Positions 10,531 to 58,350 of a stretch of DNA of 64,000 bases are shown piece after piece. Position 1 is the first letter of the stretch; every line of letters begins with the position of its first letter. The position numbers and the translations under genes are program-made. The notes below the pieces were generated by a model. The model saw only the letters and a list, made by a program, of their open reading frames with translations. It was not told the DNA's origin and made no database searches. The stretch comes from Minisyncoccota bacterium (GTDB lineage: Bacteria; Patescibacteriota; Minisyncoccia; Phycocordibacterales; CAIJYI01), in the NCBI GenBank assembly GCA_023229825.1, contig JALNYN010000001.1, forward strand, positions 14,422-78,421, given 5' to 3'.

Positions 10531-10938
10531 ATGACAAAAAAAAACATTGTGTTGTTTAGTGCATTAGTAGGAACGATTACGTTTTTCTTACTTATCTTTT
10601 CGAGTGAAATCGGATTGTGCCCAAGAAATATCGGTACTTGTTCGCAAAGTTATGATGCAACTGCAACAAACTTTTTCTTGTTTTTACCAATACTTTTCTT
10701 CTCCCTCATCACCTACAAACTTCGCGAAGAAACATTTCGTGCATGGCTTCATTTTGCGTATTGGTGGGTTCCGTTATCAATGTTTCTTACTCTGATAACT
10801 CCTGAGAGCCGCGGCGGCGGATTCGGACCACAAATATCATGGGGAAAAGAAGACACCGCTTTTGTGTTTTCGGGTTTGTTCGCCATCATCTCCCTCATCC
10901 TTATCATTTACAAATCCATAAAGTTAAGAGGGAAGTGA
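10531..10938 (+). CDS. small multi-TM membrane protein, C-terminus ...ISLILIIYKSIKLRGK (paralog family 1 of 3)
   Basis: Shares FAYWW(V/L)P and an identical C-terminal 14 aa with 11083-11472 and 46141-46572. Confidence 0.7.
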   Translation: MTKKNIVLFSALVGTITFFLLIFSSEIGLCPRNIGTCSQSYDATATNFFLFLPILFFSLITYKLREETFRAWLHFAYWWVPLSMFLTLITPESRGGGFGPQISWGKEDTAFVFSGLFAIISLILIIYKSIKLRGK

Positions 10939-42702: not shown

Positions 42703-45700
42703 ATGAAATCAAAATATGCATTTATTTTAGTCGTCGCTTCTCTTTTTTTCTTCGCGAACTTTGCTGACGCGAGAACGATCGGAGCGGTTTTGAACGGGAA
42801 ATACTTAAGCCCATCAGTGACGGTATTCGATATTGATGATAATAACAAAATTCTCGGAAATGTCACCCTTCCTCCCGGTCGCTTTTTCTATGCTTCGGGC
42901 GATGTATTTATCGCTAAAGCTCAAAATCAAACTGTTGCTTTTGTGACAACGAACGACAGAAAGGTTTTTGTTATTGACCTATCTTCCGATATTCCAAAAT
43001 TAGCTTCCGGAGTTAATCCCATTTTAATTTCCAACTCTGCAGGCGATATTACCATGAGTACGGATGGAGAATTTTTGATCGTTTCCGGCAGCACGTCGGG
43101 CGAACCGATCTCCATAATAAATATTGCATCAAGGCAAGAACTCGGTACTTTTTCAGGTGCAACAAATGTCAATTCTGTGGATATTTGTTCCGATGGATCC
43201 CTTTTGATGTCTTCTTCATCCGGAAACGTGCGGAGATTCACTATTAATAATGCAGGCGGAATTATCGACACAGGAGAGTTGCTTCCGGTCGTTAATCCAA
43301 GAAATGTCGTTTGCTCGCCGGATGGAAGAACTGGAATAATTATAAGTTCGAACCGCATTACCTCATTCCGTGTGTCGGGAATGACGCCAATAAGCAACAG
43401 ATCATTGTCGTACATGTTTCGCGGAATTTCCGGTGTTTTTAGCGCCTCCGGAGATAGATTTTTTGTTCGTGAATGTTTCAACCCGTTTCACGACGGAGAG
43501 ATAAAAGCGTTTGCTTATGATTCAAACTCCGGACAATTTGGCACTTCTCTTTTTACCATATCGGCGACAGAAACTAGCGAGGTGAGCGGTATTGAACAAC
43601 TCGCTGTTGATCCCGATGGAACTAGGCTATATGTACCATCAATGTATTACTCTGTAAGCATGTACGATGCGCACACCGGTTCATTTTTGTCATCATCGCC
43701 ATTTGGATTAATGTATTCAACAGGCATAGCGGTTGCAATGAAAACCGTTCAAAGCAATGTAACGATACTTGCGAATGCGAGCGTGACTGAAGATGACGGT
43801 ATAAATGATGCGAAAGGGGTTGCTGAAAAAACGAGCTTCAGCTTCGGTGTGCAATACAAAGGAATTGTACCTAATTCAGTTCGAGCAATTATCGAAAATA
43901 ATAATGGAACACTTATCGGACTCGAATTGTACGCAACGTCGACCGATTATGCGAATGGGGTTTTCTTTTCCAATTCGTCTACTTTCCCGAAAGGACAATA
44001 TTCTTACCGTTTTGAGGCGACCGCGGAAGGAAATACTTTAACCTTAGCGGGGGGAAATATTACCGCCGGTTATTCCAATGTGGCCTTTTTGCCGGGCATT
44101 AAAGCGAGCCGTCTTTTCAATCAAGGAGACGTACTTGAAGATCAGCTTTGGGAACCGAATTGGTGGTCGGACACGAACGAGCTTATGATGAATCCCGACG
44201 GTACGAGTGAAAATGAAAATATCTACACCAAAACCGATGAGTATCTTGGAACGATCGATCAAGCGAACGTACTTCCCGGATCTCTTTTGAGAGAAAACTT
44301 TTACGTAAGCTTCCTGGATTTCATGAATAGCATGAAAGAAAATGGTGAGATCGCGGACTGGAAATCTCTGCCGTATGACTGGCGGCTCGCATTTCCAAGA
44401 ATTTTAAATCAGGGGAACTCAACGGTGAACGGCAAGATATTTTACGATGACCGGTATGCAACCGATACGCCGTATATTTTGCAAGAAATACGAGCGCTTG
44501 CACAGTCTTCCGACACGGGAAAAGTGAATATTATCGGTCACTCAATGGGTGGGTTGCTTGCAAAGAAACTTCTTGTCGATCACGCAGACATTGCGAACAT
44601 GACCGATACGCTCATTCTGGTTGACTCTCCTCAGCTTGGAACCCCGCAAGCTGTTGCCACCATCCTTCACGGAACCAACGAAAATATTCCGAGCAGTTTC
44701 GGCCTCTTCAGCGACGCCGAGACAGGAAGAAGAGTGGCGCAAAACATGCCATCGGTGTACACGCTTTTGCCTTCGCGGGAATATGCGGAACGTGTCGAGG
44801 AAAGCGGTCTTGGATATTCCGCTCTCATTAAACAAGATGCCTCGCTTCAAAGCCTTGCGAATGACCCGCTTTTTGTTGGCGGCTCCGTTTTGGATTTTTA
44901 TCAAACGAAGTACGGTACGACGACCATTGCAACTTATGACGGAATGAAAGATTTTCTCGGAGGGAAAGACGGGCATCTTTCGGCTCCCGATAACGATATC
45001 ATTCACCCGAAACGAATTCAAATGGATATGCTCGCCGATGCGCAAGCGATACACGATGAAATTGACAACTGGACGCCGTCCGAAAAGATGCGCGTTGTTC
45101 AGATCGCCGGATGGGGAATCCCCGAAACGATTCGCGGATTGAATTACCGAGCAAAGCGGTCCTGTATCTGGAAACTTTGCACTGAACCGAAATTTGATGT
45201 TGAACCGCTTTTCACTTTTGACGGAGACGGGACGGTGACGCTCCCGAGCCAGACGGCGATGAATACCGAAACGTATTATGTGGATTTGAATTCGCATAAT
45301 TTCCTTTTAATAAAAGATCGTTCTCATGGTTCAGTTTTAGAAGTGGAAAGTGTCCGAAAACTTATTAATAATCTAGTTGAATATAAAGACAATCCTTCGG
45401 GTGGTTTAGAGTATATTAAAACAGATAAATCTCGGTTGGTTTCAGATAAAAAATTCATTCGACTCTCCCTTCACTCTCCCGTAAAAATTGACGTAACCGA
45501 CAAAAGCGGCAATCATCTGGGTATCTCTGAAAATTCAACTGCGGAAAAAATCGTTTACGATACTGAAATGCCCAACTCGTATTACGTGGAAATGGGAGAA
45601 GGAAAGTATCTCGGCTTTCCTCTCGAAACAGAGACTACCATTGATCTAGAGGGAACCGGGGAGGGAACTTTTACTCTTGAGATGGAACAATACCAAGGTG

Positions 45701-46113
45701 ACATACTTCAAGGAACGCAAACCTTCACCGATATTCCTGTGAGTCCGACGACCAGAGCGACTTTAATCGTAAATACGCTTGGTGATGCAAAAGAACTTGC
45801 GCTCGATCAAAACGGCGACGGCTCGATCGATTCAGTTGTGTTTACCGACGAGAATAAAGAAACAATAACGTTTCAAACTTTGGAAGACGCACTGCAAAAA
45901 CTTCCTGATCTACGGCCAGCGCTGTTAAACCAAGCTGAGACTGCGGAAAAACAATTCAATATAGGAAACTTCAAAGCAACGAATGCGCTTTTACTAGTTT
46001 TACAAAAAGAAATTCCTAAACTCTCTCAGGGCAATACGTCAAACGAGGAATATCTGAAGGTATTAGCGATTATCGATGTTCTTATTAAAACATCAGAAGA
46101 GAATATTCTGTAA
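42703..46113 (+). CDS. giant secreted LCAT/PGAP1-like lipase, paralog of 5951-10489 (different N-terminal beta-propeller-like region)
   Basis: Signal peptide; VNIIGHSMGGLLAKKL, SLPYDWRLAFP, GYSNVAFLPGIKASRLF; blocks collinear with the first paralog. Confidence 0.85.
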   Translation: MKSKYAFILVVASLFFFANFADARTIGAVLNGKYLSPSVTVFDIDDNNKILGNVTLPPGRFFYASGDVFIAKAQNQTVAFVTTNDRKVFVIDLSSDIPKLASGVNPILISNSAGDITMSTDGEFLIVSGSTSGEPISIINIASRQELGTFSGATNVNSVDICSDGSLLMSSSSGNVRRFTINNAGGIIDTGELLPVVNPRNVVCSPDGRTGIIISSNRITSFRVSGMTPISNRSLSYMFRGISGVFSASGDRFFVRECFNPFHDGEIKAFAYDSNSGQFGTSLFTISATETSEVSGIEQLAVDPDGTRLYVPSMYYSVSMYDAHTGSFLSSSPFGLMYSTGIAVAMKTVQSNVTILANASVTEDDGINDAKGVAEKTSFSFGVQYKGIVPNSVRAIIENNNGTLIGLELYATSTDYANGVFFSNSSTFPKGQYSYRFEATAEGNTLTLAGGNITAGYSNVAFLPGIKASRLFNQGDVLEDQLWEPNWWSDTNELMMNPDGTSENENIYTKTDEYLGTIDQANVLPGSLLRENFYVSFLDFMNSMKENGEIADWKSLPYDWRLAFPRILNQGNSTVNGKIFYDDRYATDTPYILQEIRALAQSSDTGKVNIIGHSMGGLLAKKLLVDHADIANMTDTLILVDSPQLGTPQAVATILHGTNENIPSSFGLFSDAETGRRVAQNMPSVYTLLPSREYAERVEESGLGYSALIKQDASLQSLANDPLFVGGSVLDFYQTKYGTTTIATYDGMKDFLGGKDGHLSAPDNDIIHPKRIQMDMLADAQAIHDEIDNWTPSEKMRVVQIAGWGIPETIRGLNYRAKRSCIWKLCTEPKFDVEPLFTFDGDGTVTLPSQTAMNTETYYVDLNSHNFLLIKDRSHGSVLEVESVRKLINNLVEYKDNPSGGLEYIKTDKSRLVSDKKFIRLSLHSPVKIDVTDKSGNHLGISENSTAEKIVYDTEMPNSYYVEMGEGKYLGFPLETETTIDLEGTGEGTFTLEMEQYQGDILQGTQTFTDIPVSPTTRATLIVNTLGDAKELALDQNGDGSIDSVVFTDENKETITFQTLEDALQKLPDLRPALLNQAETAEKQFNIGNFKATNALLLVLQKEIPKLSQGNTSNEEYLKVLAIIDVLIKTSEENIL

Positions 46114-47824: not shown

Positions 47825-49027
47825 ATGAATAACGGCAAATTAATTCGTTTGCCCGGGAATCCTCTTTTGGAGGTGGGTAAAACATTTAGTACTGACGAAT
47901 TTCTCTCTTTTCTTTTTGATTTTTTCGCCACATTGTGGCTGACGCATTATATCGCGGCCGGAGGAGGGGAACATATCCTTGCCGCGGTGAACGCAATATT
48001 TAATGTAATATTTGGAGGTTGGATCATCGTAACCATCCCGCTCTTGTTCGCTCTAGTAGGTCCGGTATGCGAGAAGATCGGATTCTTCCCGAAACACATT
48101 TGGGATTCTTGCTGGGAACGATTTAAAGACAAAAAAGAGGGAAAAGCAAAAACTCGCGGATTCTACGCGAAAAAGGCGATGTCTCGGGGTTTCAAAAGCA
48201 TGGGTGAAGATATCGTCGTGCATGACCCTATATATGTGACGGCAATGTTTTTTGGCGTCAGCATGTTTCCTTGGATCCCTCCTTGGGTGATCTGTATTTT
48301 TTGTTTCCTGCTCGCGGTATTCATTGTTATGATACTTGAAGTGGGAATAAAAGAGGTTCTGCATAAGACGGCGAAAGTATTGCTCGTGAAGAAAGGTTTT
48401 GAAGAAGAACCTTACTACGAAGCGAGATTCCTCTTTGACGATGAAGAAAAGGCGAGGGAAGTCTTTGGCGAACTCGCGAAAAAATTCGTCCACAAAGGTG
48501 AAGACGAGATCTGGAAGATCCATTACCATGACCGATATTTTTCAAAAAAGGAATGGTATAACGGAAGGGTCGCCAAATTGAGAAGCCGAGACCGGCACTT
48601 ACCGAACGGCGAACCGATGCGGACTTGGCAGATCGTGTATACGTTGGCGAAGGAAGAATGGGGCGGTAAGACCGACCAGTTCAGGTATTTTATCTCTCTC
48701 AAGGAGAAAATGTATTATTTGGCGGAACATCCGGAACACCTGCATCAGCCCGACAACATTCCCGACAGAAGGGTGCGCGAGACCGTCAAAAAAATGGCGG
48801 AAAACGAGGTGCCTTTTGTGATCGAGTTCGAACGTTTCGTCGCTGACGATCCGGAATGCCTGCTCATTACGCTCGACGTGGTTAAAACCGAAGACTCTTA
48901 TTTAATAGAGATCAAGGCAAGACCGAAGAACAAAGCGATGATGCAGGAAGCCATGCAATACGCCATGCACTTCGGCGGCTTGACCGCAACAGACGGAAAG
49001 TATTCTCTTTTTGCAGAGACGGTATAA
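47825..49027 (+). CDS. hypothetical membrane protein with ~220-aa cytoplasmic domain
   Basis: RBS aggagggtcaaATG; TM helices then a charged domain; terminator at 49031-49061. Confidence 0.6.
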   Translation: MNNGKLIRLPGNPLLEVGKTFSTDEFLSFLFDFFATLWLTHYIAAGGGEHILAAVNAIFNVIFGGWIIVTIPLLFALVGPVCEKIGFFPKHIWDSCWERFKDKKEGKAKTRGFYAKKAMSRGFKSMGEDIVVHDPIYVTAMFFGVSMFPWIPPWVICIFCFLLAVFIVMILEVGIKEVLHKTAKVLLVKKGFEEEPYYEARFLFDDEEKAREVFGELAKKFVHKGEDEIWKIHYHDRYFSKKEWYNGRVAKLRSRDRHLPNGEPMRTWQIVYTLAKEEWGGKTDQFRYFISLKEKMYYLAEHPEHLHQPDNIPDRRVRETVKKMAENEVPFVIEFERFVADDPECLLITLDVVKTEDSYLIEIKARPKNKAMMQEAMQYAMHFGGLTATDGKYSLFAETV

Positions 49028-49293
49028 TTGATGGACGGGAAAACCCCCGTCCATTTTTTTGTGGAGAAAGGGGAGACTAATGAATGACGTTAGAACCTCA
49101 AAATTTTTTGATAGCAAAAACGTGGCGTTTATTCACGCTTAATGATATAGAGTACGGGAGTGCGGTAAGTGACATGATAAAAAAGTGATTTTGTACAGCA
49201 CACTGATGGGGAGAAAAATCCACACAAAATTCATGGCGAGTTTCGTAACAAAATGTTATTATATAATATAATAAGCGCGCTTTTTCACAAAAA

Positions 49294-50490
49294 ATGAATT
49301 CCCCAAAAAAACCAACATATATAGACCTTTTTGCTGGATGCGGTGGTCTTTCTCTTGGCTTGTATCGTGCCGGATGGCACGGTCTTTTTGCAATTGAGAA
49401 GGATACGATGGCGTTCGGCACGCTTAAGCATAATTTGATTGACAAAAAAGAACATTTTACTTGGCCGGATTGGTTGCCTCAAAATGAACTTGAAATCAAA
49501 GACGTGCTATCTAAATACAAAAAAGAATTAAGCGAATTATCAGGAAAGGTTGATCTTGTCGTCGGAGGTCCTCCCTGTCAGGGGTTTTCAATGGCAGGAA
49601 AGCGCAATGAGGGCGACATGAGAAATAAACTTATCGATTCATATATCGATTTTGTAAAACTTGTTCGTCCAAGGATGATATTTTTCGAAAATGTCAAAGG
49701 TTTTACGGTAGGGTTTAAAAAGGGGGAAATCCGCGGGGATGCGTATTCGAAACATGTTATCAAATCATTAGGAGATTTAGGGTACAATGTTGACTGGAAA
49801 GTTCTCGATTTTTCTGAGTATGGCGTTCCGCAACGCCGGAAGCGATTTATTTTGGTCGGGGTTTTGGGTGGTGATGTTAATAAGTTTTTTGAACTGTTGA
49901 ATTTAAACCGAAAGCAATTTCTTTCAGATAATAAACTCTTGCAAAAGTGTACTTTGAAGGCGGCTCTTTCCGATTTATATCAAGCAAATGGGATCGTAGA
50001 CTCTCCTGATTCAAAAAACTTCAAAGCGGGGATTTATTCGTCACCCAAAAGTAATTATCAAAAATTAATGAGATCAGGGGGTGATATTCCAAAAATTCCC
50101 GATAGTCATCGCTTTGCCAAACACGGAGAAGAAACTGTTAAATTATTTCAAACTTTATTAAAAAAAGCAGAGAAAGGTAAACGGATTGACGGTGATGAAA
50201 GATTGAAGTATGGTTTGAAGAAACGAGGCATTACAGTCCTCGGAGAGGATCTTTCAAGCCCTACACTTACGACACATCCGGATGATTACGTTCATTATCT
50301 TGAGCCGAGAATTTTGACAGTGCGCGAATATGCTCGAATTCAGTCATTTCCGGATTGGTTTGAAATAAGAGGAAAATACACCACAGGTGGAAAACAGCGA
50401 GTCAAAGAAGTTCCGAGATATACTCAACTTGGGAATGCAATCCCTCCCCTGTTTGGTGAACAGGCGGGAAGAGTTCTTAAGAAGTTGTAG
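49294..50490 (+). CDS. DNA (cytosine-5)-methyltransferase
   Basis: Motif I DLFAGCGGLSLG, motif IV GGPPCQGFS, motif VI FFENVKGF, motif VIII region. Confidence 0.9.
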   Translation: MNSPKKPTYIDLFAGCGGLSLGLYRAGWHGLFAIEKDTMAFGTLKHNLIDKKEHFTWPDWLPQNELEIKDVLSKYKKELSELSGKVDLVVGGPPCQGFSMAGKRNEGDMRNKLIDSYIDFVKLVRPRMIFFENVKGFTVGFKKGEIRGDAYSKHVIKSLGDLGYNVDWKVLDFSEYGVPQRRKRFILVGVLGGDVNKFFELLNLNRKQFLSDNKLLQKCTLKAALSDLYQANGIVDSPDSKNFKAGIYSSPKSNYQKLMRSGGDIPKIPDSHRFAKHGEETVKLFQTLLKKAEKGKRIDGDERLKYGLKKRGITVLGEDLSSPTLTTHPDDYVHYLEPRILTVREYARIQSFPDWFEIRGKYTTGGKQRVKEVPRYTQLGNAIPPLFGEQAGRVLKKL

Positions 50491-50492
50491 AC

Positions 50493-52772
50493 ATGAAAAA
50501 TAAAATACAGTTCAAAATCAGTTCGGGTCTTAAAAACCTGATAGGGAGAGAATTGATAACCGATGAATATATCGCGATTTTTGAACTTGTAAAAAATTCC
50601 TATGATGCACGCGCGACAAAAGTGACGATTGCATTTGAAAACATTACGGATCCGGAAAAATCGAAAATTATTATTTCGGACAACGGTAAGGGGATGAATT
50701 ATGATGACCTGATTGATAAATGGCTTTTTGTGGCTTATTCTGCAAAAAAAGAAGGAACGGAAGACGCGGGAGAATATAGAGATAAAATTAATTCAAAACG
50801 GCTTTATGCCGGAGCGAAAGGTGTCGGTCGTTTCTCTTGTGATCGTTTGGGATCAGAATTGAATTTAATAACCACAAAAAACACCAAAAATGCTAAAACA
50901 GAAAATCTTTTTGTAAACTGGACTGATTTTGAAAAGGATGCAGAAAAAATCTTTGCAAAAGTTGATGTTCAACACGAGACTCTTAAAGAAAATCCATACA
51001 AAATCAACCACGGTACCGTTCTGGAAATCTGCGGACTTCGTGATAAATGGGATAGAAAAAGAATATTGAGTTTAAAAAGGTCACTCGCTAAATTGATCAA
51101 CCCTAATCAGGGAAATGATAATTCGAAATTTTCTATTGAAATATTGGCTTCCGAGGAGAAAAACGAAGACAGGAAGCAAAAAAAAGAAAGGGATTGTGTA
51201 AACGGATATGTTACTAATTTTCTCTTTGAAACTCTTGGGTTAAAAACAACTCAAATTATGGCGGAGATATCTCCGGATGGGAATATCATCATCACTACAC
51301 TAAAAGACCGCGGTCGTTTAATATATAAATTAACAGAAAATAACCCCTTTCAGGGGCTTTTGACTGATATAAAAATTCACCTTTTTCATTTAAACAGAAA
51401 ATCAAAAGCAAATTTTACCAAAACGATGGGCATGGAACCAGTAAAATATGGTTCGATTTTTCTCTATAAAAATGGTTTTCGAATATACCCTTTTGGTGAG
51501 GATGGTGAGGATTTGTTAGGAATAGAAAGAAGGAAACAGCAAGGGTATAATCGGTTTCTCGGAACTCGGGATCTTATGGGAAGAATTGAAATTGACGGGA
51601 AGAATGAGGAGTTAAAAGAAACTACCAGCCGAGATGGCGGTCTCATGAAAAATAAAAACTATGAGGCTCTCTTAAAATTTTTTAATGAGTATGCGCTTAG
51701 AAGACTTGAGAAATATGTCGTGGACGTCATCAAGTGGGGAGATGATACAAAATCCGGTCAATTGGCTCTTGAGCCCGAGGATGTAAAAACACAAATTTCC
51801 GACATTGTTGCTGGTATAACAAGTCCGAAAGGTATAATAAATCTTGAGTACGATAAAAATTTCTTAGATATTATTTCTGAGAGTCAAGAGAAAAGTCTGC
51901 CAAAAATTGCGAAAAACTTTGCACGTATTGCTGAAGAAAGTGGCAATAAGGAGTTACAGAAAGAAGCGGCGCGTGCAGTGCTCCAAGTTAAAGAGTTGCT
52001 TGCTGCAAAAGTCGAGGCGGAAAAAGGTGAAAAAAATGCTCAGGAGTTAATTAAATCGACAGAGCAAAAGTTGGAAGAAGAAATCAGTGAAAAACTTTTT
52101 CTTAAGTCTGTTCTATCGACAGATACAGAAGAGGTTATCGTGTTGCAACATCAGATTGATATATCAACAGAAGCAATCAAGGATGGTGTTGGTGATTTGC
52201 TTTATATGGTCAACCACAAGGTTCCAAAAGAAAAAATGCTGGAACCGATAGAAAGAATACGATTTGAAGCAGAAAAAATATCTTCAATTGTAAAATTTTC
52301 AACTAAAGCCAATTTTAGTCTTCAGGTTCCCGAGATAACAGCAGACCTCGTTTCTTTTGTTAAGGAATATATTGAAAATGTTTACAGGGAAGATGAAGCC
52401 ATAAAAACCAATCGACCCTATGTTATTTTTAAGGTAATAACAAATGGAGCCAAATTTTCGTGCAAGTTTAGACCGCTCGAAGTGATAATGGTGATAGACA
52501 ACCTTTTTAGTAATTCGATGAAACACAACGCTCGAAATATTACTATTTCGTGTACTAATCATAATGATGTGTTAGAAATAAAAGTGAAAGACGACGGAAC
52601 GGGGATAGAAGAGCGAATTTTCTCTAAAGTTTTTAATCTTGGTTTTACAACGACAGATGGATCTGGAATCGGACTTTATCACGTAAAGCAAATTATTGAA
52701 AAAATGCACGGAAAAGTTGAAGTTGGTCGGACTGAAAAAGGAGCTGAGATTATAATTCGAATAAAAAAATGA
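50493..52772 (+). CDS. protein with two GHKL ATPase modules: an N-terminal MutL/MORC/Hsp90-like one and a C-terminal histidine-kinase-like one
   Basis: N-terminal ELVKNSYDA...ISDNGKGM; C-terminal N-box IDNLFSNSMKHN, G1 DDGTGI, G2 GSGIGLYHVKQI; starts 3 nt after the methyltransferase stop. Confidence 0.7.
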   Translation: MKNKIQFKISSGLKNLIGRELITDEYIAIFELVKNSYDARATKVTIAFENITDPEKSKIIISDNGKGMNYDDLIDKWLFVAYSAKKEGTEDAGEYRDKINSKRLYAGAKGVGRFSCDRLGSELNLITTKNTKNAKTENLFVNWTDFEKDAEKIFAKVDVQHETLKENPYKINHGTVLEICGLRDKWDRKRILSLKRSLAKLINPNQGNDNSKFSIEILASEEKNEDRKQKKERDCVNGYVTNFLFETLGLKTTQIMAEISPDGNIIITTLKDRGRLIYKLTENNPFQGLLTDIKIHLFHLNRKSKANFTKTMGMEPVKYGSIFLYKNGFRIYPFGEDGEDLLGIERRKQQGYNRFLGTRDLMGRIEIDGKNEELKETTSRDGGLMKNKNYEALLKFFNEYALRRLEKYVVDVIKWGDDTKSGQLALEPEDVKTQISDIVAGITSPKGIINLEYDKNFLDIISESQEKSLPKIAKNFARIAEESGNKELQKEAARAVLQVKELLAAKVEAEKGEKNAQELIKSTEQKLEEEISEKLFLKSVLSTDTEEVIVLQHQIDISTEAIKDGVGDLLYMVNHKVPKEKMLEPIERIRFEAEKISSIVKFSTKANFSLQVPEITADLVSFVKEYIENVYREDEAIKTNRPYVIFKVITNGAKFSCKFRPLEVIMVIDNLFSNSMKHNARNITISCTNHNDVLEIKVKDDGTGIEERIFSKVFNLGFTTTDGSGIGLYHVKQIIEKMHGKVEVGRTEKGAEIIIRIKK

Positions 52773-53746
52773 GATTAAAATACAAAATTTTATGGTTTGA
52801 GGATGACTCAGAATTTCTTGAAAAAAGACTCGTTCCACGAATAGAGAAATATTTAAGTGAAGGATTAGGATTTGATTCCGAAATTGTTCATAAAACAAGC
52901 GGTACAAATGTTGATGCTCTTGTTTCTCGTGAAGAATACGATCTTATTGTTACCGATTTAAATCTTACGCAAGGGAAAGACGAAATCGGTCAAAAAATTA
53001 TTGAGAAAGTTCGGCTTCAGAAAATTTTAACCGATGTGCTTCTTTATTCGAGTTCACCACGTGCTATAAAAGAAATAAAAGAAAAAAATCCAGGGATAGA
53101 AAGAATTTCTTTTGCCTCTGGTCGTGCGGCGATATATGATAAACTATGCGAAATCATTTTTTTGACTGTTAGAAAAGTTCAGGATGTTAATAATTTAAGG
53201 GGAATGGTTATTACTGAGGCGATTGATATTGAAACGAGGATTCGAGATTTATTAGTTGAGAAATTTGAAGAATTAGACGCGGATGAACTTGAAAAACTCA
53301 GACAAAAAAAAATTAAACATAAAAAAAATAATGTTGATAAGTTAAAAAAAAGTGTTGCGAAAAGTGTGTCTCAGCTGGTTGAAGGATTGTTTACTTTTTC
53401 TGAGCTCCACGACGAATTAATGGGAATGATAGGGGAAGCTATTTCTGAAACGAAACGGGTACTTTGTGATCCAAGAAAGGCTAAGTCAACAGATCCAAAG
53501 TTAATTAAATTAAAAAAATTAGCATTTTTACGGGATGAATTACAAAAAATGAAATCAGACGTAATTCATCTTAGAAATGATATGGCACATGCGAAGGCTG
53601 AAAGACATCCTACGACAGGACGACCAGTTTTAACGAGCATAATTAGCGGAAAAAAACAACATTTTGACGATACTAAGTGTATAAAAATAAGGAAAGCTAT
53701 ATTGAGCCATTTCCAAAATATTGAGGAAATTGCGAAGCACTTATAA
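52769..53746 (+). CDS. receiver (REC)-like domain protein; the C-terminal helical domain carries an Rx4H motif (RNDMAH), possibly HEPN-like
   Basis: ILWFEDD ... DLIVTDLNL acidic-pocket and phospho-Asp pattern; ATGA overlap with the upstream gene. Confidence 0.55.
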   Translation: MRLKYKILWFEDDSEFLEKRLVPRIEKYLSEGLGFDSEIVHKTSGTNVDALVSREEYDLIVTDLNLTQGKDEIGQKIIEKVRLQKILTDVLLYSSSPRAIKEIKEKNPGIERISFASGRAAIYDKLCEIIFLTVRKVQDVNNLRGMVITEAIDIETRIRDLLVEKFEELDADELEKLRQKKIKHKKNNVDKLKKSVAKSVSQLVEGLFTFSELHDELMGMIGEAISETKRVLCDPRKAKSTDPKLIKLKKLAFLRDELQKMKSDVIHLRNDMAHAKAERHPTTGRPVLTSIISGKKQHFDDTKCIKIRKAILSHFQNIEEIAKHL

Positions 53747-54007
53747 AGTTCGGCGCTTATTTGTTTTTTTGTTTAATTTCTTCCTTGATTATAACTTAAT
53801 GAGGTACAATTCTTTTTTAAAGTAGTGTTGTAACGAATTTTAAACGACGCCGGACGGTTTAATCGTGTGCTTCGCACGCTATCACGGATGGGGGATATCT
53901 TTCATTACATGAACGGTACAGTTTTCACACCTCACTTCGCCTGTGGGCTCGTTGCGGTATGTTCAAACTCTTCGATTCCCCCGCGCGAGACAAGCAGTTG
54001 TCTCGCT

Positions 54008-54073
54008 CATCTCCACAAATCTAAAAAACAGTCCGCTTGTTGGCGGACTGTTTTTTAGATTTGTGGAGATGGG
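54008..54073. terminator. long inverted repeat / bidirectional terminator abutting the tmRNA 3' end (a 29-bp stem that includes an inverted copy of the tmRNA 3'-terminal 15 nt)
   Basis: CATCTCCACAAATCTAAAAAACAGTCCGC-TTGTT-GGCGGACTGTTTTTTAGATTTGTGGAGATG. Confidence 0.6.
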
Positions 54074-54449
54074 GGGAATTGAACCCCCGTGCAAAAAGGA
54101 ACTCTTGGTGCCGGTACAAACATAGTTTATTTTTTTTGGTTTAAACCTTATAAGTTTGAAATAAACAAAATCTTATAAGCGTCGAGCTTCCTTTGTTTTG
54201 AAAATGTGCCGAAGCGCTCACATTTTCTATCCTGATGATATTACACCTTTTCTTTCTTATCAGGACTCAAAAAGAAAAGATGCCGTTTACGCTAAAGCGT
54301 AGCTCGGAGCGAAGTACGGAGATAAGACCGCACCTGCTTTTTTAGATAAGTTTGCACTTATGCAGTTTCTCGCGCATTTTAACGGGTGAGCGAGAATATC
54401 CGGTTTGAGCATTCAAGAGAGCGGCTTATTGTCTAGGCCGATCATCCCC
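54062..54449 (-). ncRNA. ssrA: tmRNA (ssrA)
   Basis: 5' GGGGAUG pairs with 3' CAUCUCC, including a G3:U70 wobble; T-arm GGGGGTTCAATTCCCCC; tag ORF ending ...YALA-TAA (stop at 54287-54289); adjacent to smpB. Confidence 0.7.
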
Positions 54450-56394: not shown

Positions 56395-58350
56395 ATGAAA
56401 GAAACAAAAAAAGACAAAAATTTAAATAATAATGAGGAGGAAATGAAGCCTCAGAAAAATAATAAGCCGAAACTTCCCGATATCAGTCCTTCAAAACGGT
56501 TTTTTACCAACATCGGCGGATCTCTGCTTATTTTTTTCGTGCTGATCACTCTCTATTCATTCGTTTCGGGCGAACAAGCAAAGAAACCGGACGAGATCAC
56601 TCTGACGCAGCTGGCTTCCTATGTGAAAAAAGGGGAAGTGAAAGCGGTGACGATCGACGGTGAAAAACTTACCGTTGACCTGAAGAATAAACAGCAAAAA
56701 GAGGCGAAAAAAGAATTGGAAAATTCGCTTTCTCAGTCGCTCGTCAATTACGGCGTCAGTCCGGAACAGATCTCTGGCGTTCAGCTCAAAATCGTCGATG
56801 GCACGGGATTTTGGTATTGGTTTATGAATTTGGCACCGATCTTGATCCCCGTCATTTTCATCCTGCTTTTTTTCTGGATCATCACGCGGCAAGTGAAAGG
56901 CGCGGGCGTGCAGGCATTTACTTTTGGGCAATCGAAAGCGCGCATCATCGATCCTGATGATCAAAATCAGCTCGTGACATTTAAAGATGTTGCGGGAGTG
57001 AAAGAAGCGAAAGAAGAACTGCTGGAGATCGTCGACTTCCTGAAAAATCCGAAAAAATTCTTGGACATCGGTGCGAGGATCCCGAAAGGCGTGATACTGA
57101 TGGGTGCGCCGGGAACGGGGAAGACGCTGCTTGCTCGCGCGGTTGCGGGCGAAGCGCACGTACCATTCTTCCATCTGTCGGGTTCGGAATTCGTCGAGAT
57201 GTTCGTCGGTGTGGGAGCTTCCCGCGTGCGCGATCTTTTCAAGATGGCGAAAAAAATGGCGCCCGCTATCATATTTATCGACGAGATCGACGCGGTCGGA
57301 CGCGTGCGCGGTACCGGTGTTGGAGGAGGGAATGACGAACGCGAACAGACACTCAACCAGATATTGGTGGAGATGGACGGGTTCGAACCGAATGAAAAAG
57401 TTATTGTCATCGCCGCGACGAATCGTCCCGATGTGCTCGATCCCGCACTCCTTCGTCCCGGACGTTTTGATCGGCGCGTTACCCTCGACCTGCCTGATCT
57501 CGAAGATCGCGAAGAGATCTTGAAAATTTACGCGCGCAAAAAACCGTTTGCGGAAGATGTGAACTTGCGGACCCTCGCCGAACGAACTCCCGGATTCTCC
57601 GGTGCCGATCTGTATTCGCTTATGAATGAAGGCGCGATCCTTGCCGCCCGCGAAGCGCGCAAAAAAGTCGCGCAGTTCGATCTTATCCGTTCCATTGAAA
57701 AGGTCATGCTCGGACCTGAACGCAAAAGCCATCTGCTTTCCAAAGACGAAAAGAAGATCACCGCCTATCACGAAGTCGGACACGCGCTCGTCGCTTCCGT
57801 GCTTCCTCTCGCTGATCCGGTTCAAAAAGTTTCGATCATTTCCCGAGGACACGCCGCCGGCTATACGCTTACGCTCCCGCTCGAAGAAAGAAAATTGCAG
57901 ACCAAAAAAGAATTTCTCGATGATATTGCGAAAGCGCTCGGAGGATATTCCGCAGAAAAATTAATATTCGGAGATATCACGACGGGACCGTCGAATGACT
58001 TGCAGGTTGCGACTGCGCTCGCGAGGAATATGGTCACGCGCTGGGGAATGTCCGACAAGATAGGACCGGTTGCGCTCGAAGATCCGTCAGGGAAAGTTAT
58101 TTACGGACGCGGGATCGGCGAGAAAGAATATTCCGAACAGGTATCCGCGCTGGTTGATGAGGAAGTGTCAGCGATCATGAACGAAGGTTTGAAAAGAGCG
58201 AACGAAGTGCTGGAAACGCATCGAAAAGCCCTCGATATGATCTCGGCGGAACTTATCCGCGTGGAAACGATAGAACACAAAGAATTTGAAAATCTCTTGA
58301 TCGCGAATGGCATCGTACCGAAGAAAAAAATAGAAGAGGAGGTTAAATAA
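56395..58350 (+). CDS. ftsH: ATP-dependent zinc metalloprotease FtsH
   Basis: AAA Walker [17 protein letters not shown] region, HEVGHALV zinc site, N-terminal TM. Confidence 0.93.

Follow-up and report, generated by a model that had tools for sequence, protein, structure and literature searches.

Is the cluster of three genes at positions 49294-53746 of the 64,000-nucleotide stretch of Minisyncoccota contig JALNYN010000001.1 analysed here (the window) a defence system, or an ordinary two-component pair that lies beside a DNA methylase? The cluster comprises, all on the forward strand, an open reading frame (ORF) for a C5-cytosine DNA methyltransferase of the Dcm type (398 aa, 49294..50490), one for a kinase with two GHKL ATPase modules (759 aa, 50493..52772) and one for a protein with a receiver (REC) domain (325 aa, 52769..53746), and it had been put forward from its letters alone as a candidate for an uncharacterised defence system. 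NCBI names the proteins of this metagenome-assembled genome as Candidatus Paceibacterota (Patescibacteria/CPR). A survey of related loci supports the view that the three genes form a conserved unit that moves horizontally, not an ordinary housekeeping two-component system. Regarding its function, we see about an even chance that the cluster is a mobile immunity module, in which a self mark is coupled via a His-Asp phosphorelay to an abortive-infection RNase. The defence role of the triad and the RNase activity of its REC protein are what we infer from the domains, their conserved residues and their genomic company, as set out below.

The three ORFs were confirmed as co-oriented and tightly joined, as had been predicted, and their recurrence as a triad exceeds chance. 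The two junctions had been given as 3 nt and 4 nt: the second stands, the kinase and REC genes overlapping by 4 nt (ATGA), whereas the methylase and kinase genes are separated by a spacer of 2 nt (TAG-AC-ATG) and not 3.

Conservation and spread of the triad

Relatives of the kinase were found in at least 581 species genomes in a scan of one genome per species. For the 79 best loci, ORFs were called and searched with hidden Markov models (HMMs) built from the window proteins. The methylase gene lies directly upstream of the kinase gene in 74 of these loci and the REC gene directly downstream in 75; of the four in which no REC gene was detected, L026 and L087 are truncated by the contig end. All three genes together occur in 71 of the 79 loci, so that the neighbourhood survey proposed with the original prediction bears out the conserved linkage of the three genes, and a REC protein whose C-terminal domain is of the window type was found in 68. 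The triad occurs in more than ten phyla with a patchy distribution, including Patescibacteria, Bacteroidota, Bacillota, Planctomycetota, Acidobacteriota and Proteobacteria.

Relatives of the triad were also found on 19 IMG/VR viral contigs, where in most cases their own Dcm gene is linked to them; the methylase gene is sometimes inverted or convergent on these contigs, with the linkage kept. Among the genome loci, the triad stands directly behind Tn7-like tnsB/tniB/tniQ/tnsE genes in L003, between the portal and terminase genes of a prophage, as a moron, in L004, and beside an integrase gene in L006. A Vsr gene accompanies it in L007, and in L001 it lies next to a restriction-modification (R-M) unit consisting of helix-turn-helix (HTH), N6/N4 methylase and MutH-like genes. 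In a metagenome-assembled genome of Bacillota (L011), two near-identical tRNA-Arg(CCG) genes at 1526-1600 and 10727-10801 bound an island of about 9 kb, which carries a DDE transposase, a fragment of a tyrosine integrase and the methylase-kinase-REC triad, a textbook case of a tRNA-integrated island.

The composition of the loci varies around the kinase. Directly 3' of the triad, a convergent gene for an HhH-GPD glycosylase or Vsr was observed in L004 (10890-11552), L050 (9727-10389) and L007 (9266-9784), which fits the repair of T:G mismatches arising from deamination of 5-methylcytosine. L001 (6539-8502) and L002 carry two tandem REC-HEPN-like paralogues after one kinase gene, in L001 of 319 and 324 aa with 41% and 67% identity to the window REC protein; a heterodimeric effector or a buffer role of one of them is possible. 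In L064 (9268-10678) and L067 (8248-9620), two genes without a Pfam match, each for about 230 aa, stand in place of the gene for the REC-HEPN-like protein; they may be alternative receiver/effector pairs. Another arrangement, represented by L052 (3541-9666) and also seen in L057, L063 and L065, consists of an Arm-DNA-binding/C5-methylase fusion (760 aa), a gene for an MvaI/BcnI endonuclease (match at 1.8e-75), the kinase gene and a gene for a REC-only protein of about 130 aa without the effector domain. The presence of a nuclease gene where the receiver lacks the helical domain fits the fused domain of the other loci being an effector.

On plasmids, tblastn with the kinase returned only distant GHKL kinases (25-30% identity) with other partners, and tblastn with the REC protein gave no match. 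Two plasmid loci illustrate these other partnerships: in Enterobacter mori (L009, 5001-8223) the kinase has no methylase beside it and its REC partner of 357 aa ends in an unrelated C-terminus, and in Stenotrophomonas (L008, 3655-8450) a kinase is accompanied by Dcm, a 212-aa REC protein and a 226-aa protein. The GHKL kinase scaffold thus appears to recruit varied effectors. A gammaproteobacterial homologue searched by blastn against E. coli genomes gave no match.

A histidine kinase with two GHKL ATPase modules

The 759-aa protein, which carries the NCBI label 'sensor histidine kinase', had been predicted to contain two separate GHKL modules, and both were recovered with all of their boxes (HATPase_c_3 at residues 27-162, HATPase_c at residues 664-758). 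The N-terminal module (residues 1-240, 50493..51212, forward strand) is an ATPase of the MutL/paraMORC type, matching HATPase_c_3 at 2.5e-27, with ELVKNSYDA at residue 31 and DNGKGM at residue 63. We aligned 16 homologues that are 50-73% identical to the window protein, and in this alignment its Bergerat motifs (E31/N35, D63xGxG and G107AKGVGRF) show no variation, and those of the second ATPase domain are invariant too. Besides MutL, the module resembles the ATPase of the restriction enzymes BbrUII/HgiDII over residues 28-236 (NF050001, 1.3e-23, 83 bits against a family cutoff of 550), and it matches the PADLOC model REase_II at 3.5e-11. The kinase family is large, and members from Bacteroidota, Bacillota, Betaproteobacteria and Patescibacteria remain more than 50% identical.

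Between the two ATPases, it had been claimed, no dimerisation or phospho-acceptor domain was to be seen. This claim has to be withdrawn, because the C-terminal portion (residues 542-759, 52116..52769, forward strand) is a histidine-kinase core with a DHp hairpin followed by the catalytic CA domain. The latter matches HATPase_c at 5.2e-24 and shows the N box at residue 669, the G1 box DDGTGI at 700 and the G2 box GSGIGL at 723. A profile of the kinase family matched ZraS, SrrB and HK853 in the PDB over DHp and CA together (HK853 over profile positions 541-764). His553 (VLQHQIDI; codon 52149-52151) is invariant in the 16 homologues, and an alignment with HMMER places it on the phospho-His in ISHELRTP of HK853 and reproduces the coordinates of the PDB profile search; hhalign of the kinase family with the HK853 sequence aligned the CA domain only. 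His553 is hence a candidate phospho-acceptor, and the 759-aa protein reads as a complete soluble class-I histidine kinase with a MutL/paraMORC-type ATPase as its input module. With a DHp domain and a conserved His in the kinase, normal His-to-Asp phosphotransfer is to be expected.

The middle region (residues ~241-541, 51213..52115, forward strand) is conserved as well. It contains columns invariant in the alignment, forming the block YGSxFxYKNGFRxYPxGE...RRKxQG...GRIEI...ETTSRDGGL, and then continues as a charged helical linker. Searches of Pfam, NCBIfam and PDB sequences with residues 241-541 gave no match, and the region may be a transducer or DNA-contact module.

The receiver protein and its C-terminal domain

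The N-terminus of the third protein is receiver-like with an acidic pocket, as had been proposed. The REC domain (residues 1-118, 52769..53122, forward strand) has a conserved pocket with the acidic pair E11/D12, the phospho-acceptor D63 (codon 52955-52957) and S94. It is followed by a helical domain, the putative effector (residues 119-325, 53123..53746, forward strand), which contains RNDMAH at 53573-53590, a motif that had been read as the Rx4H signature of HEPN RNases. This reading is borne out in part. Across 36 aligned sequences, the most distant at 23% identity, R269 and H274 never vary, while A273 and N270, the polar residue after the R, are at least 90% conserved, and RNxxAH is kept in 65 of the 68 loci with the window-type C-terminal domain. 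R144-G145 is invariant too. Furthermore, the first core helix carries E or D at position 154 in 36 of 36 aligned sequences, with K or R at +2 to +4; HEPN domains are expected to have such an acidic residue there, in an Ex3[KR]-like setting (PMC3710099).

Weak but convergent matches to HEPN families were found among the homologues. Homologue P0052 shares 28% identity with the window protein and aligns to HEPN_RiboL-PSP at 7.6e-5 (23.1 bits, cutoff 28.4) over residues 130-310, that is, over the entire domain, and the best such match among domain-only sequences reached 1.1e-5. RiboL-PSP-HEPN is catalytically intact and a distant relative of AbiD/AbiF (Anantharaman et al. 2013, PMC3710099). Weaker matches of other members were obtained to HEPN_MAE_28990 (0.011), to HEPN_Swt1 over the Rx4H region (0.07-0.13) and to Abi_2, PADLOC traces in homologues pointed to Cas13a, Cas13b and two CARF_HEPN models (E 0.002-0.01), and in the window REC protein itself Abi_2 at E ~1 is the only HEPN trace. 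Since the Rx4H motif is invariant and several independent weak HEPN matches converge, we consider the C-terminal domain to be probably HEPN, although the fold is probable rather than proven.

A profile search with the domain among 1.84 billion representatives returned 1194 clusters at E<=1e-3, and the best 150 of these are all REC fusions of about 300 aa, without a bridge to other HEPN families among these 150. A PDB sequence-profile search with the domain gave coiled-coil noise only, and neither the REC protein nor its 36 homologues matched a PADLOC 2.0 system.

The methylase

The first gene was rightly taken for a canonical Dcm-type methyltransferase: its product matches PF00145 (3.4e-55), TIGR00675 (4.1e-46) and PADLOC MTase_II (5.3e-82), with the motifs FAGCGG (residue 13), PPCQ (93), ENV (132), QRR (180) and GNA (380). 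It is one specific orthologous methylase family that accompanies the kinase in the 74 loci. In the genome loci L010-L089, median identity to the window proteins falls from 56.7% (methylase) through 46.6% (kinase) to 27.9% (REC protein); conservation is thus highest in the methylase, and the REC protein evolves fastest. The target-recognition region of the methylase is only moderately variable across the family, which is unusual among R-M methylases and hints at a recognition site common to the family.

Relation to described systems

The cluster is a member, possibly a sister clade, of a kind of system that was described computationally in 2021, so that its kind cannot be called undescribed: C5-methylase, HATPase_c_3/DHp/HATPase_c protein and REC-like protein were published together by Bellieny-Rabelo, Pretorius and Moleleki (2021, PMC8011034). 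These authors reported a module in 644 regions of 628 strains, with a kinase-like protein composed of HATPase_c_3, a new DHp domain termed 'HEF_HK' and HATPase_c, which in 91.6% is linked to a REC-like 'Response_reg_2' protein without another known domain, with C5-methylases upstream and Vsr, HNH and MvaI/BcnI genes nearby. They suggested a derivation from paraMORCs and a regulatory part in R-M, left the REC C-terminus unassigned and made no functional test. The window kinase has the same three-part layout (HATPase_c_3, DHp with a conserved His, HATPase_c) and is likewise soluble; its REC gene is adjacent and encodes the acidic pair, phospho-Asp and Ser/Thr with no annotated output domain; and a C5-methylase lies directly upstream in the window and in 74 of the 79 loci, with Vsr, MutH, N6 methylase or MvaI/BcnI genes near some loci. 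The core His is followed by E or D in the published family, whereas the window has LQHQID and its family has Q, H or L after the His. PF19191 (HEF_HK) and PF19192 (Response_reg_2) gave no match at E<=10 in the window proteins, nor in the Muricauda and betaproteobacterial homologues and the Enterobacter plasmid pair, with the presence of both models in the searched library unconfirmed; precomputed annotations list neither of them. The window clade may be a sister group beyond the reach of these models.

Two experimentally studied systems follow a related logic. Ambrosia (AbrR-AbrA-AbrB-AbrC-AbrD) confers anti-phage defence in Pseudomonas and needs all five genes as well as the phospho-Asp of its REC protein, D60 (bioRxiv 10.1101/2025.09.30.679545). 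Like the window cluster, it combines a DNA methyltransferase, a HATPase sensor kinase and a REC protein in one operon. Unlike it, Ambrosia is a five-gene system that includes an XRE regulator along with a methylase for N6-adenine and a type IV-like HNH nuclease encoded on its own; a winged HTH (wHTH) is ascribed to its REC protein and its hosts are Gammaproteobacteria, whereas the window REC domain is fused to a HEPN-like domain. By description, then, the window is set apart by its C5 methylase and by the lack of an XRE or HNH ORF in 49028-54060; together with a REC C-terminus that is not a wHTH, these features led us to reject membership in Ambrosia.

In Detocs (DtcA-DtcB-DtcC), a kinase relays to a REC-effector protein, leading to abortive infection, and defence needs both the phospho-His and the phospho-Asp (Rousset et al., bioRxiv 10.1101/2023.01.24.525353). 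The fusion of a receiver to an effector instead of a DNA-binding domain is shared with the window layout. However, the sensor of Detocs is built of TPR repeats, DtcB serves as a separate buffer receiver, and the effectors are of the PNP (ATP nucleosidase), REase, TOPRIM or membrane kind; Detocs also lacks the methylase and the MutL-type ATPase that the window has. Membership was rejected here as well: the window has GHKL instead of TPR, no stand-alone receiver and no PADLOC match to its REC protein.

NTPase-gated HEPN RNases in R-M loci are known from the anticodon nucleases PrrC and RloC and from paraMORC-Ymh(HEPN) fusions (PMC3710099, PMC2292703). There, an ABC or paraMORC GHKL NTPase gates the RNase and adds a layer of defence directed at RNA. 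In these, ATPase and HEPN domain reside in one polypeptide or touch each other, whereas in the window a His-Asp phosphorelay would stand between them and there is no restriction nuclease. The window kinase shows the traits of MORC/paraMORC proteins, namely an N-terminal GHKL domain, intact ATP-binding motifs and a methylase/R-M neighbourhood (PMC2292703). Type II enzymes of the BbrUII/HgiDII family (NF050001) share the N-terminal MutL-like ATPase and the pairing with a C5-methylase, but their C-terminal two thirds form the nuclease part where the window protein has its kinase core. Whereas a type II R-M system includes a cognate endonuclease, the window offers the methylase only, with no nuclease domain detected in the other two proteins. 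Compared with a canonical two-component system, the DHp phospho-His candidate and the N/G1/G2 boxes are in place, but no HTH output above the Pfam cutoff was found in the REC protein or its scanned homologues. DefensePredictor lists a HATPase/REC system as predicted and unvalidated. No description of a REC-HEPN effector was found in the literature searched, and the HEPN effector reading of the REC protein is contained in neither PMC8011034 nor the description of Ambrosia.

Proposed mechanism and alternative explanations

In the proposed immunity module, the Dcm-type enzyme would methylate a fixed site on the host DNA, and the ATPase and middle domains of the kinase would engage DNA in an ATP-dependent manner and report unmethylated foreign DNA or a failure of methylation. 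The DNA-sensing role is ascribed to the ATPase module because of its analogy with MutL, MORC and the BbrUII/HgiDII ATPase. The DHp-CA core, once switched on, would autophosphorylate His553, as its motifs and alignment suggest, and the phosphoryl group would move to Asp63 in the conserved pocket of the receiver protein. Phosphorylation would drive dimerisation of the REC domains, through which two HEPN-like domains might come to form an active Rx4H RNase site (R269, N270, H274), and the ensuing RNA cleavage would arrest the infected cell. The catalytic motifs are intact and invariant in all four modules concerned, namely the Bergerat ATPase, H553 with the N/G1/G2 boxes, D63/S94 and RNxxAH. The most specific form of this proposal, in which the MutL/MORC-like ATPase reads cytosine methylation and activates the REC-fused HEPN RNase via the His-Asp relay, as a new type of immunity, is held only tentatively and is in our estimate doubtful. 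The original prediction of a methylation-marked defence module distinct from a normal two-component system is partly supported: the triad is mobile and has its own Dcm in 74 of 79 loci, but the kinase is canonical in its C-terminal half.

Several observations weigh against this proposal. All HEPN sequence matches fall below the curated cutoffs, and the window protein's own C-terminal domain has no significant match in Pfam, NCBIfam, PADLOC or PHROG. The domain was modelled alone, since a fold search with the full-length REC protein had given mostly receiver domains; Foldseek of this model against the PDB returned nothing significant (best E 0.23), and in the model the Rx4H motif lies at the end of a long helix rather than at the start of one, with a three-stranded beta-meander after it, a layout that departs from the textbook HEPN domain. 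The HMM search and structure prediction suggested for this C-terminus have thus yielded weak HEPN_RiboL-PSP similarity in a homologue and no significant structural match. In addition, a methyl mark cannot protect RNA, so any link between methylation and an RNase must run through the sensor, and what the ATPase module senses is pure inference. For the three-gene form, the defence reading relies on sequence and analogy, and the authors who described Ambrosia favour transcriptional control by its REC protein (bioRxiv 10.1101/2025.09.30.679545).

This last view leads to the least improbable of the alternatives, a regulatory two-component system in which the kinase would sense infection or a cellular cue and the phosphorylated REC protein controls transcription or activity of the methylase, or an unlinked nuclease, and is itself no killer. 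The published interpretations of related systems (Ambrosia, PMC8011034) favour regulation, the REC-only protein of the L052 type stands beside a genuine MvaI/BcnI and Dcm R-M pair, and the beta-meander with its helix in the predicted model could be read as a nucleic-acid-binding element. We nevertheless regard a purely regulatory role as unlikely, for no HTH or wHTH above the Pfam cutoff was found in the window REC protein or in about 46 homologues scanned (the single trace, HTH_5 at E 0.031 in homologue P0066, is below cutoff), and the C-terminus is not a wHTH in the model. Moreover, the invariant RNxxAH with a conserved acidic residue is a signature of the catalytic type and not of DNA reading, 68 of the 79 loci have no nuclease gene in the operon that could be regulated, and the REC protein evolves fastest, as is typical for effectors. 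Another alternative is a housekeeping sensor kinase and response regulator that lie beside an orphan Dcm by chance, for which the NCBI label of the kinase and its canonical DHp-CA core would speak. Conservation of the triad in more than ten phyla, patchily and in mobile contexts, is hard to reconcile with such a chance neighbourhood, as are the lack of a detectable DNA-binding output and the replacement of the sensor domain by a MutL-type ATPase; the survey of 79 loci effectively refutes this explanation, which we consider extremely improbable.

The module might instead work on DNA, as an unconventional ATP-dependent restriction enzyme, with the GHKL protein cleaving through its middle domain or together with the REC protein, the kinase-receiver pair tuning it, and the HEPN-like domain acting on DNA or being structural. 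The resemblance of the N-terminal 240 residues to the BbrUII/HgiDII ATPase, also seen with REase_II, and the strict pairing with one conserved methylase family would suit such an enzyme; so would the high conservation of the unassigned middle region, and nuclease fusions are frequent among the paraMORCs of R-M operons. But the BbrUII/HgiDII similarity is limited to the ATPase, no nuclease family was matched by the rest of the kinase in Pfam, NCBIfam, PADLOC or the PDB profile search, and where relatives do have a restriction nuclease it is the separate MvaI/BcnI gene, so that we judge DNA cleavage by the module, and likewise a DNA-directed or structural HEPN-like domain, to be improbable. A lower probability still is assigned to a selfish addiction module made of methylase and toxin, or an epigenetic signalling unit outside defence, in which phage defence would be a by-product at most: here the kinase would monitor the methylation status or the level of the methylase, and the RNase would kill or arrest cells that lose the element, as in post-segregational killing. 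R-M systems can act as addiction modules, and the wide horizontal spread on mobile elements and the rank of the methylase as the most conserved partner would be in line with this; the same features are, however, expected of defence systems, and Detocs and Ambrosia, validated relatives in logic, protect against phage.

Novelty and implications

Compared with the published module, our analysis adds a putative assignment of the phospho-His, a probable HEPN output domain and a conserved, co-inherited methylase family, along with the REC-only variant with MvaI/BcnI and the presence of the module in Patescibacteria and on viral contigs. In practice little of this is novel, since the architecture has been in print since 2021 and validation exists for a related system.

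If the proposed mechanism is true, epigenetic self-marking, MutL/MORC-type DNA-sensing ATPases and two-component phosphotransfer would be joined in one compact operon. It would amount to 'R-M without a restriction nuclease', in which the recognition of non-self DNA leads to abortive infection at the level of RNA, and the REC-HEPN protein would be the two-component counterpart of CARF-HEPN proteins (Csm6/Csx1). It would further open a direct way to learn what the paraMORC ATPases of prokaryotic R-M loci sense, and would do so for a module family in hundreds of species, minimal-genome Patescibacteria included. The family is large, with at least 581 species genomes and, for the effector domain, 760 or more protein clusters. 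Culturable carriers are available in Flagellimonas/Muricauda, Brevibacillus, Lysinibacillus, Alkaliphilus and Zobellia, and the family offers defined catalytic residues in N35/D63 of the ATPase, H553, D63 of the REC protein, R269/H274 and the Cys of the methylase. For annotation, a 'sensor histidine kinase' and a 'hypothetical protein' beside Dcm should be read as one mobile unit of the defence type.

Surrounding DNA and the ssrA site

Downstream of the cluster lies the gene for the transfer-messenger RNA (tmRNA, ssrA; 54061..54449, reverse strand; ARAGORN, and Rfam RF00023 with 119.5 bits), whose 3' end points toward the cluster and behind which smpB follows. The tmRNA gene is context of the cluster and stands outside the system itself. 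The distance from the end of the REC gene to the tmRNA 3' end is 315 bp and not about 260 bp as had been given, and the cluster end that had been placed at 54073 falls inside the tmRNA gene.

Does this position mark an integrated island, as had been suggested? Nearness to the tmRNA 3' end and a low GC content (36.5% in 49058-54060 against 44.8% in the remaining window) agree with the suggestion, but no integrase was found among the ORFs of this low-GC segment, which holds the three cluster genes only. At its left edge, a direct copy of the tmRNA 3'-terminal sequence TTTGTGGAGATGGGGGG was found with 14 of 17 positions matching (49058..49074, forward strand), which coincides with the GC boundary and directly follows the terminator of the upstream gene (49030-49055). 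Allowing up to three mismatches, this 17-mer has four matches in the window against 0.14 expected; the tmRNA end itself and the sequence that pairs with it in the hairpin described below account for two of the four, and another 14/17 match at 57364-57380 within ftsH looks like chance. The copy at 49058-49074 is suggestive of an old att site remnant. No second copy of the tmRNA 3'-end 27-mer was found in the window, a search of metagenome contigs with a tmRNA 38-mer gave no match, and syntenic relatives for an empty-site comparison were not found, the only relatives of the flanking gene being 47% and 36% identical and non-syntenic. The case for an ssrA island is thus weak, being built on the GC dip and the 14/17 repeat only. 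Among 56 other loci scanned, none has a tmRNA gene and tRNA flanks occur in L011 only, so the ssrA-adjacent position is not general for the triad family.

Between the cluster and ssrA, a perfect 32-bp inverted repeat forms a hairpin at 54006..54073 (-56.4 kcal/mol; z -14 against shuffles). Its right arm contains the final 13 nt of the tmRNA gene, and through it the tmRNA 3' terminus has an inverted copy 40 nt away. It is likely a bidirectional terminator serving the converging transcripts of cluster and tmRNA. At the other end, 22 nt upstream of the methylase start, a promoter-like GTAACA-16-TATAAT matches the consensus (49245..49272, forward strand) and is a candidate operon promoter; consensus matches in the region (15 found, 14.7 expected in shuffled sequence) show no excess.

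Further upstream, the 400-aa protein encoded at 47825-49027 has only two distant homologues among 5.8 billion sequences. It is preceded by several small membrane proteins and, before these, by a secreted protein of 1136 aa (42703-46113) with beta-propeller-like repeats and a GHSMGG motif of the lipase/esterase type.

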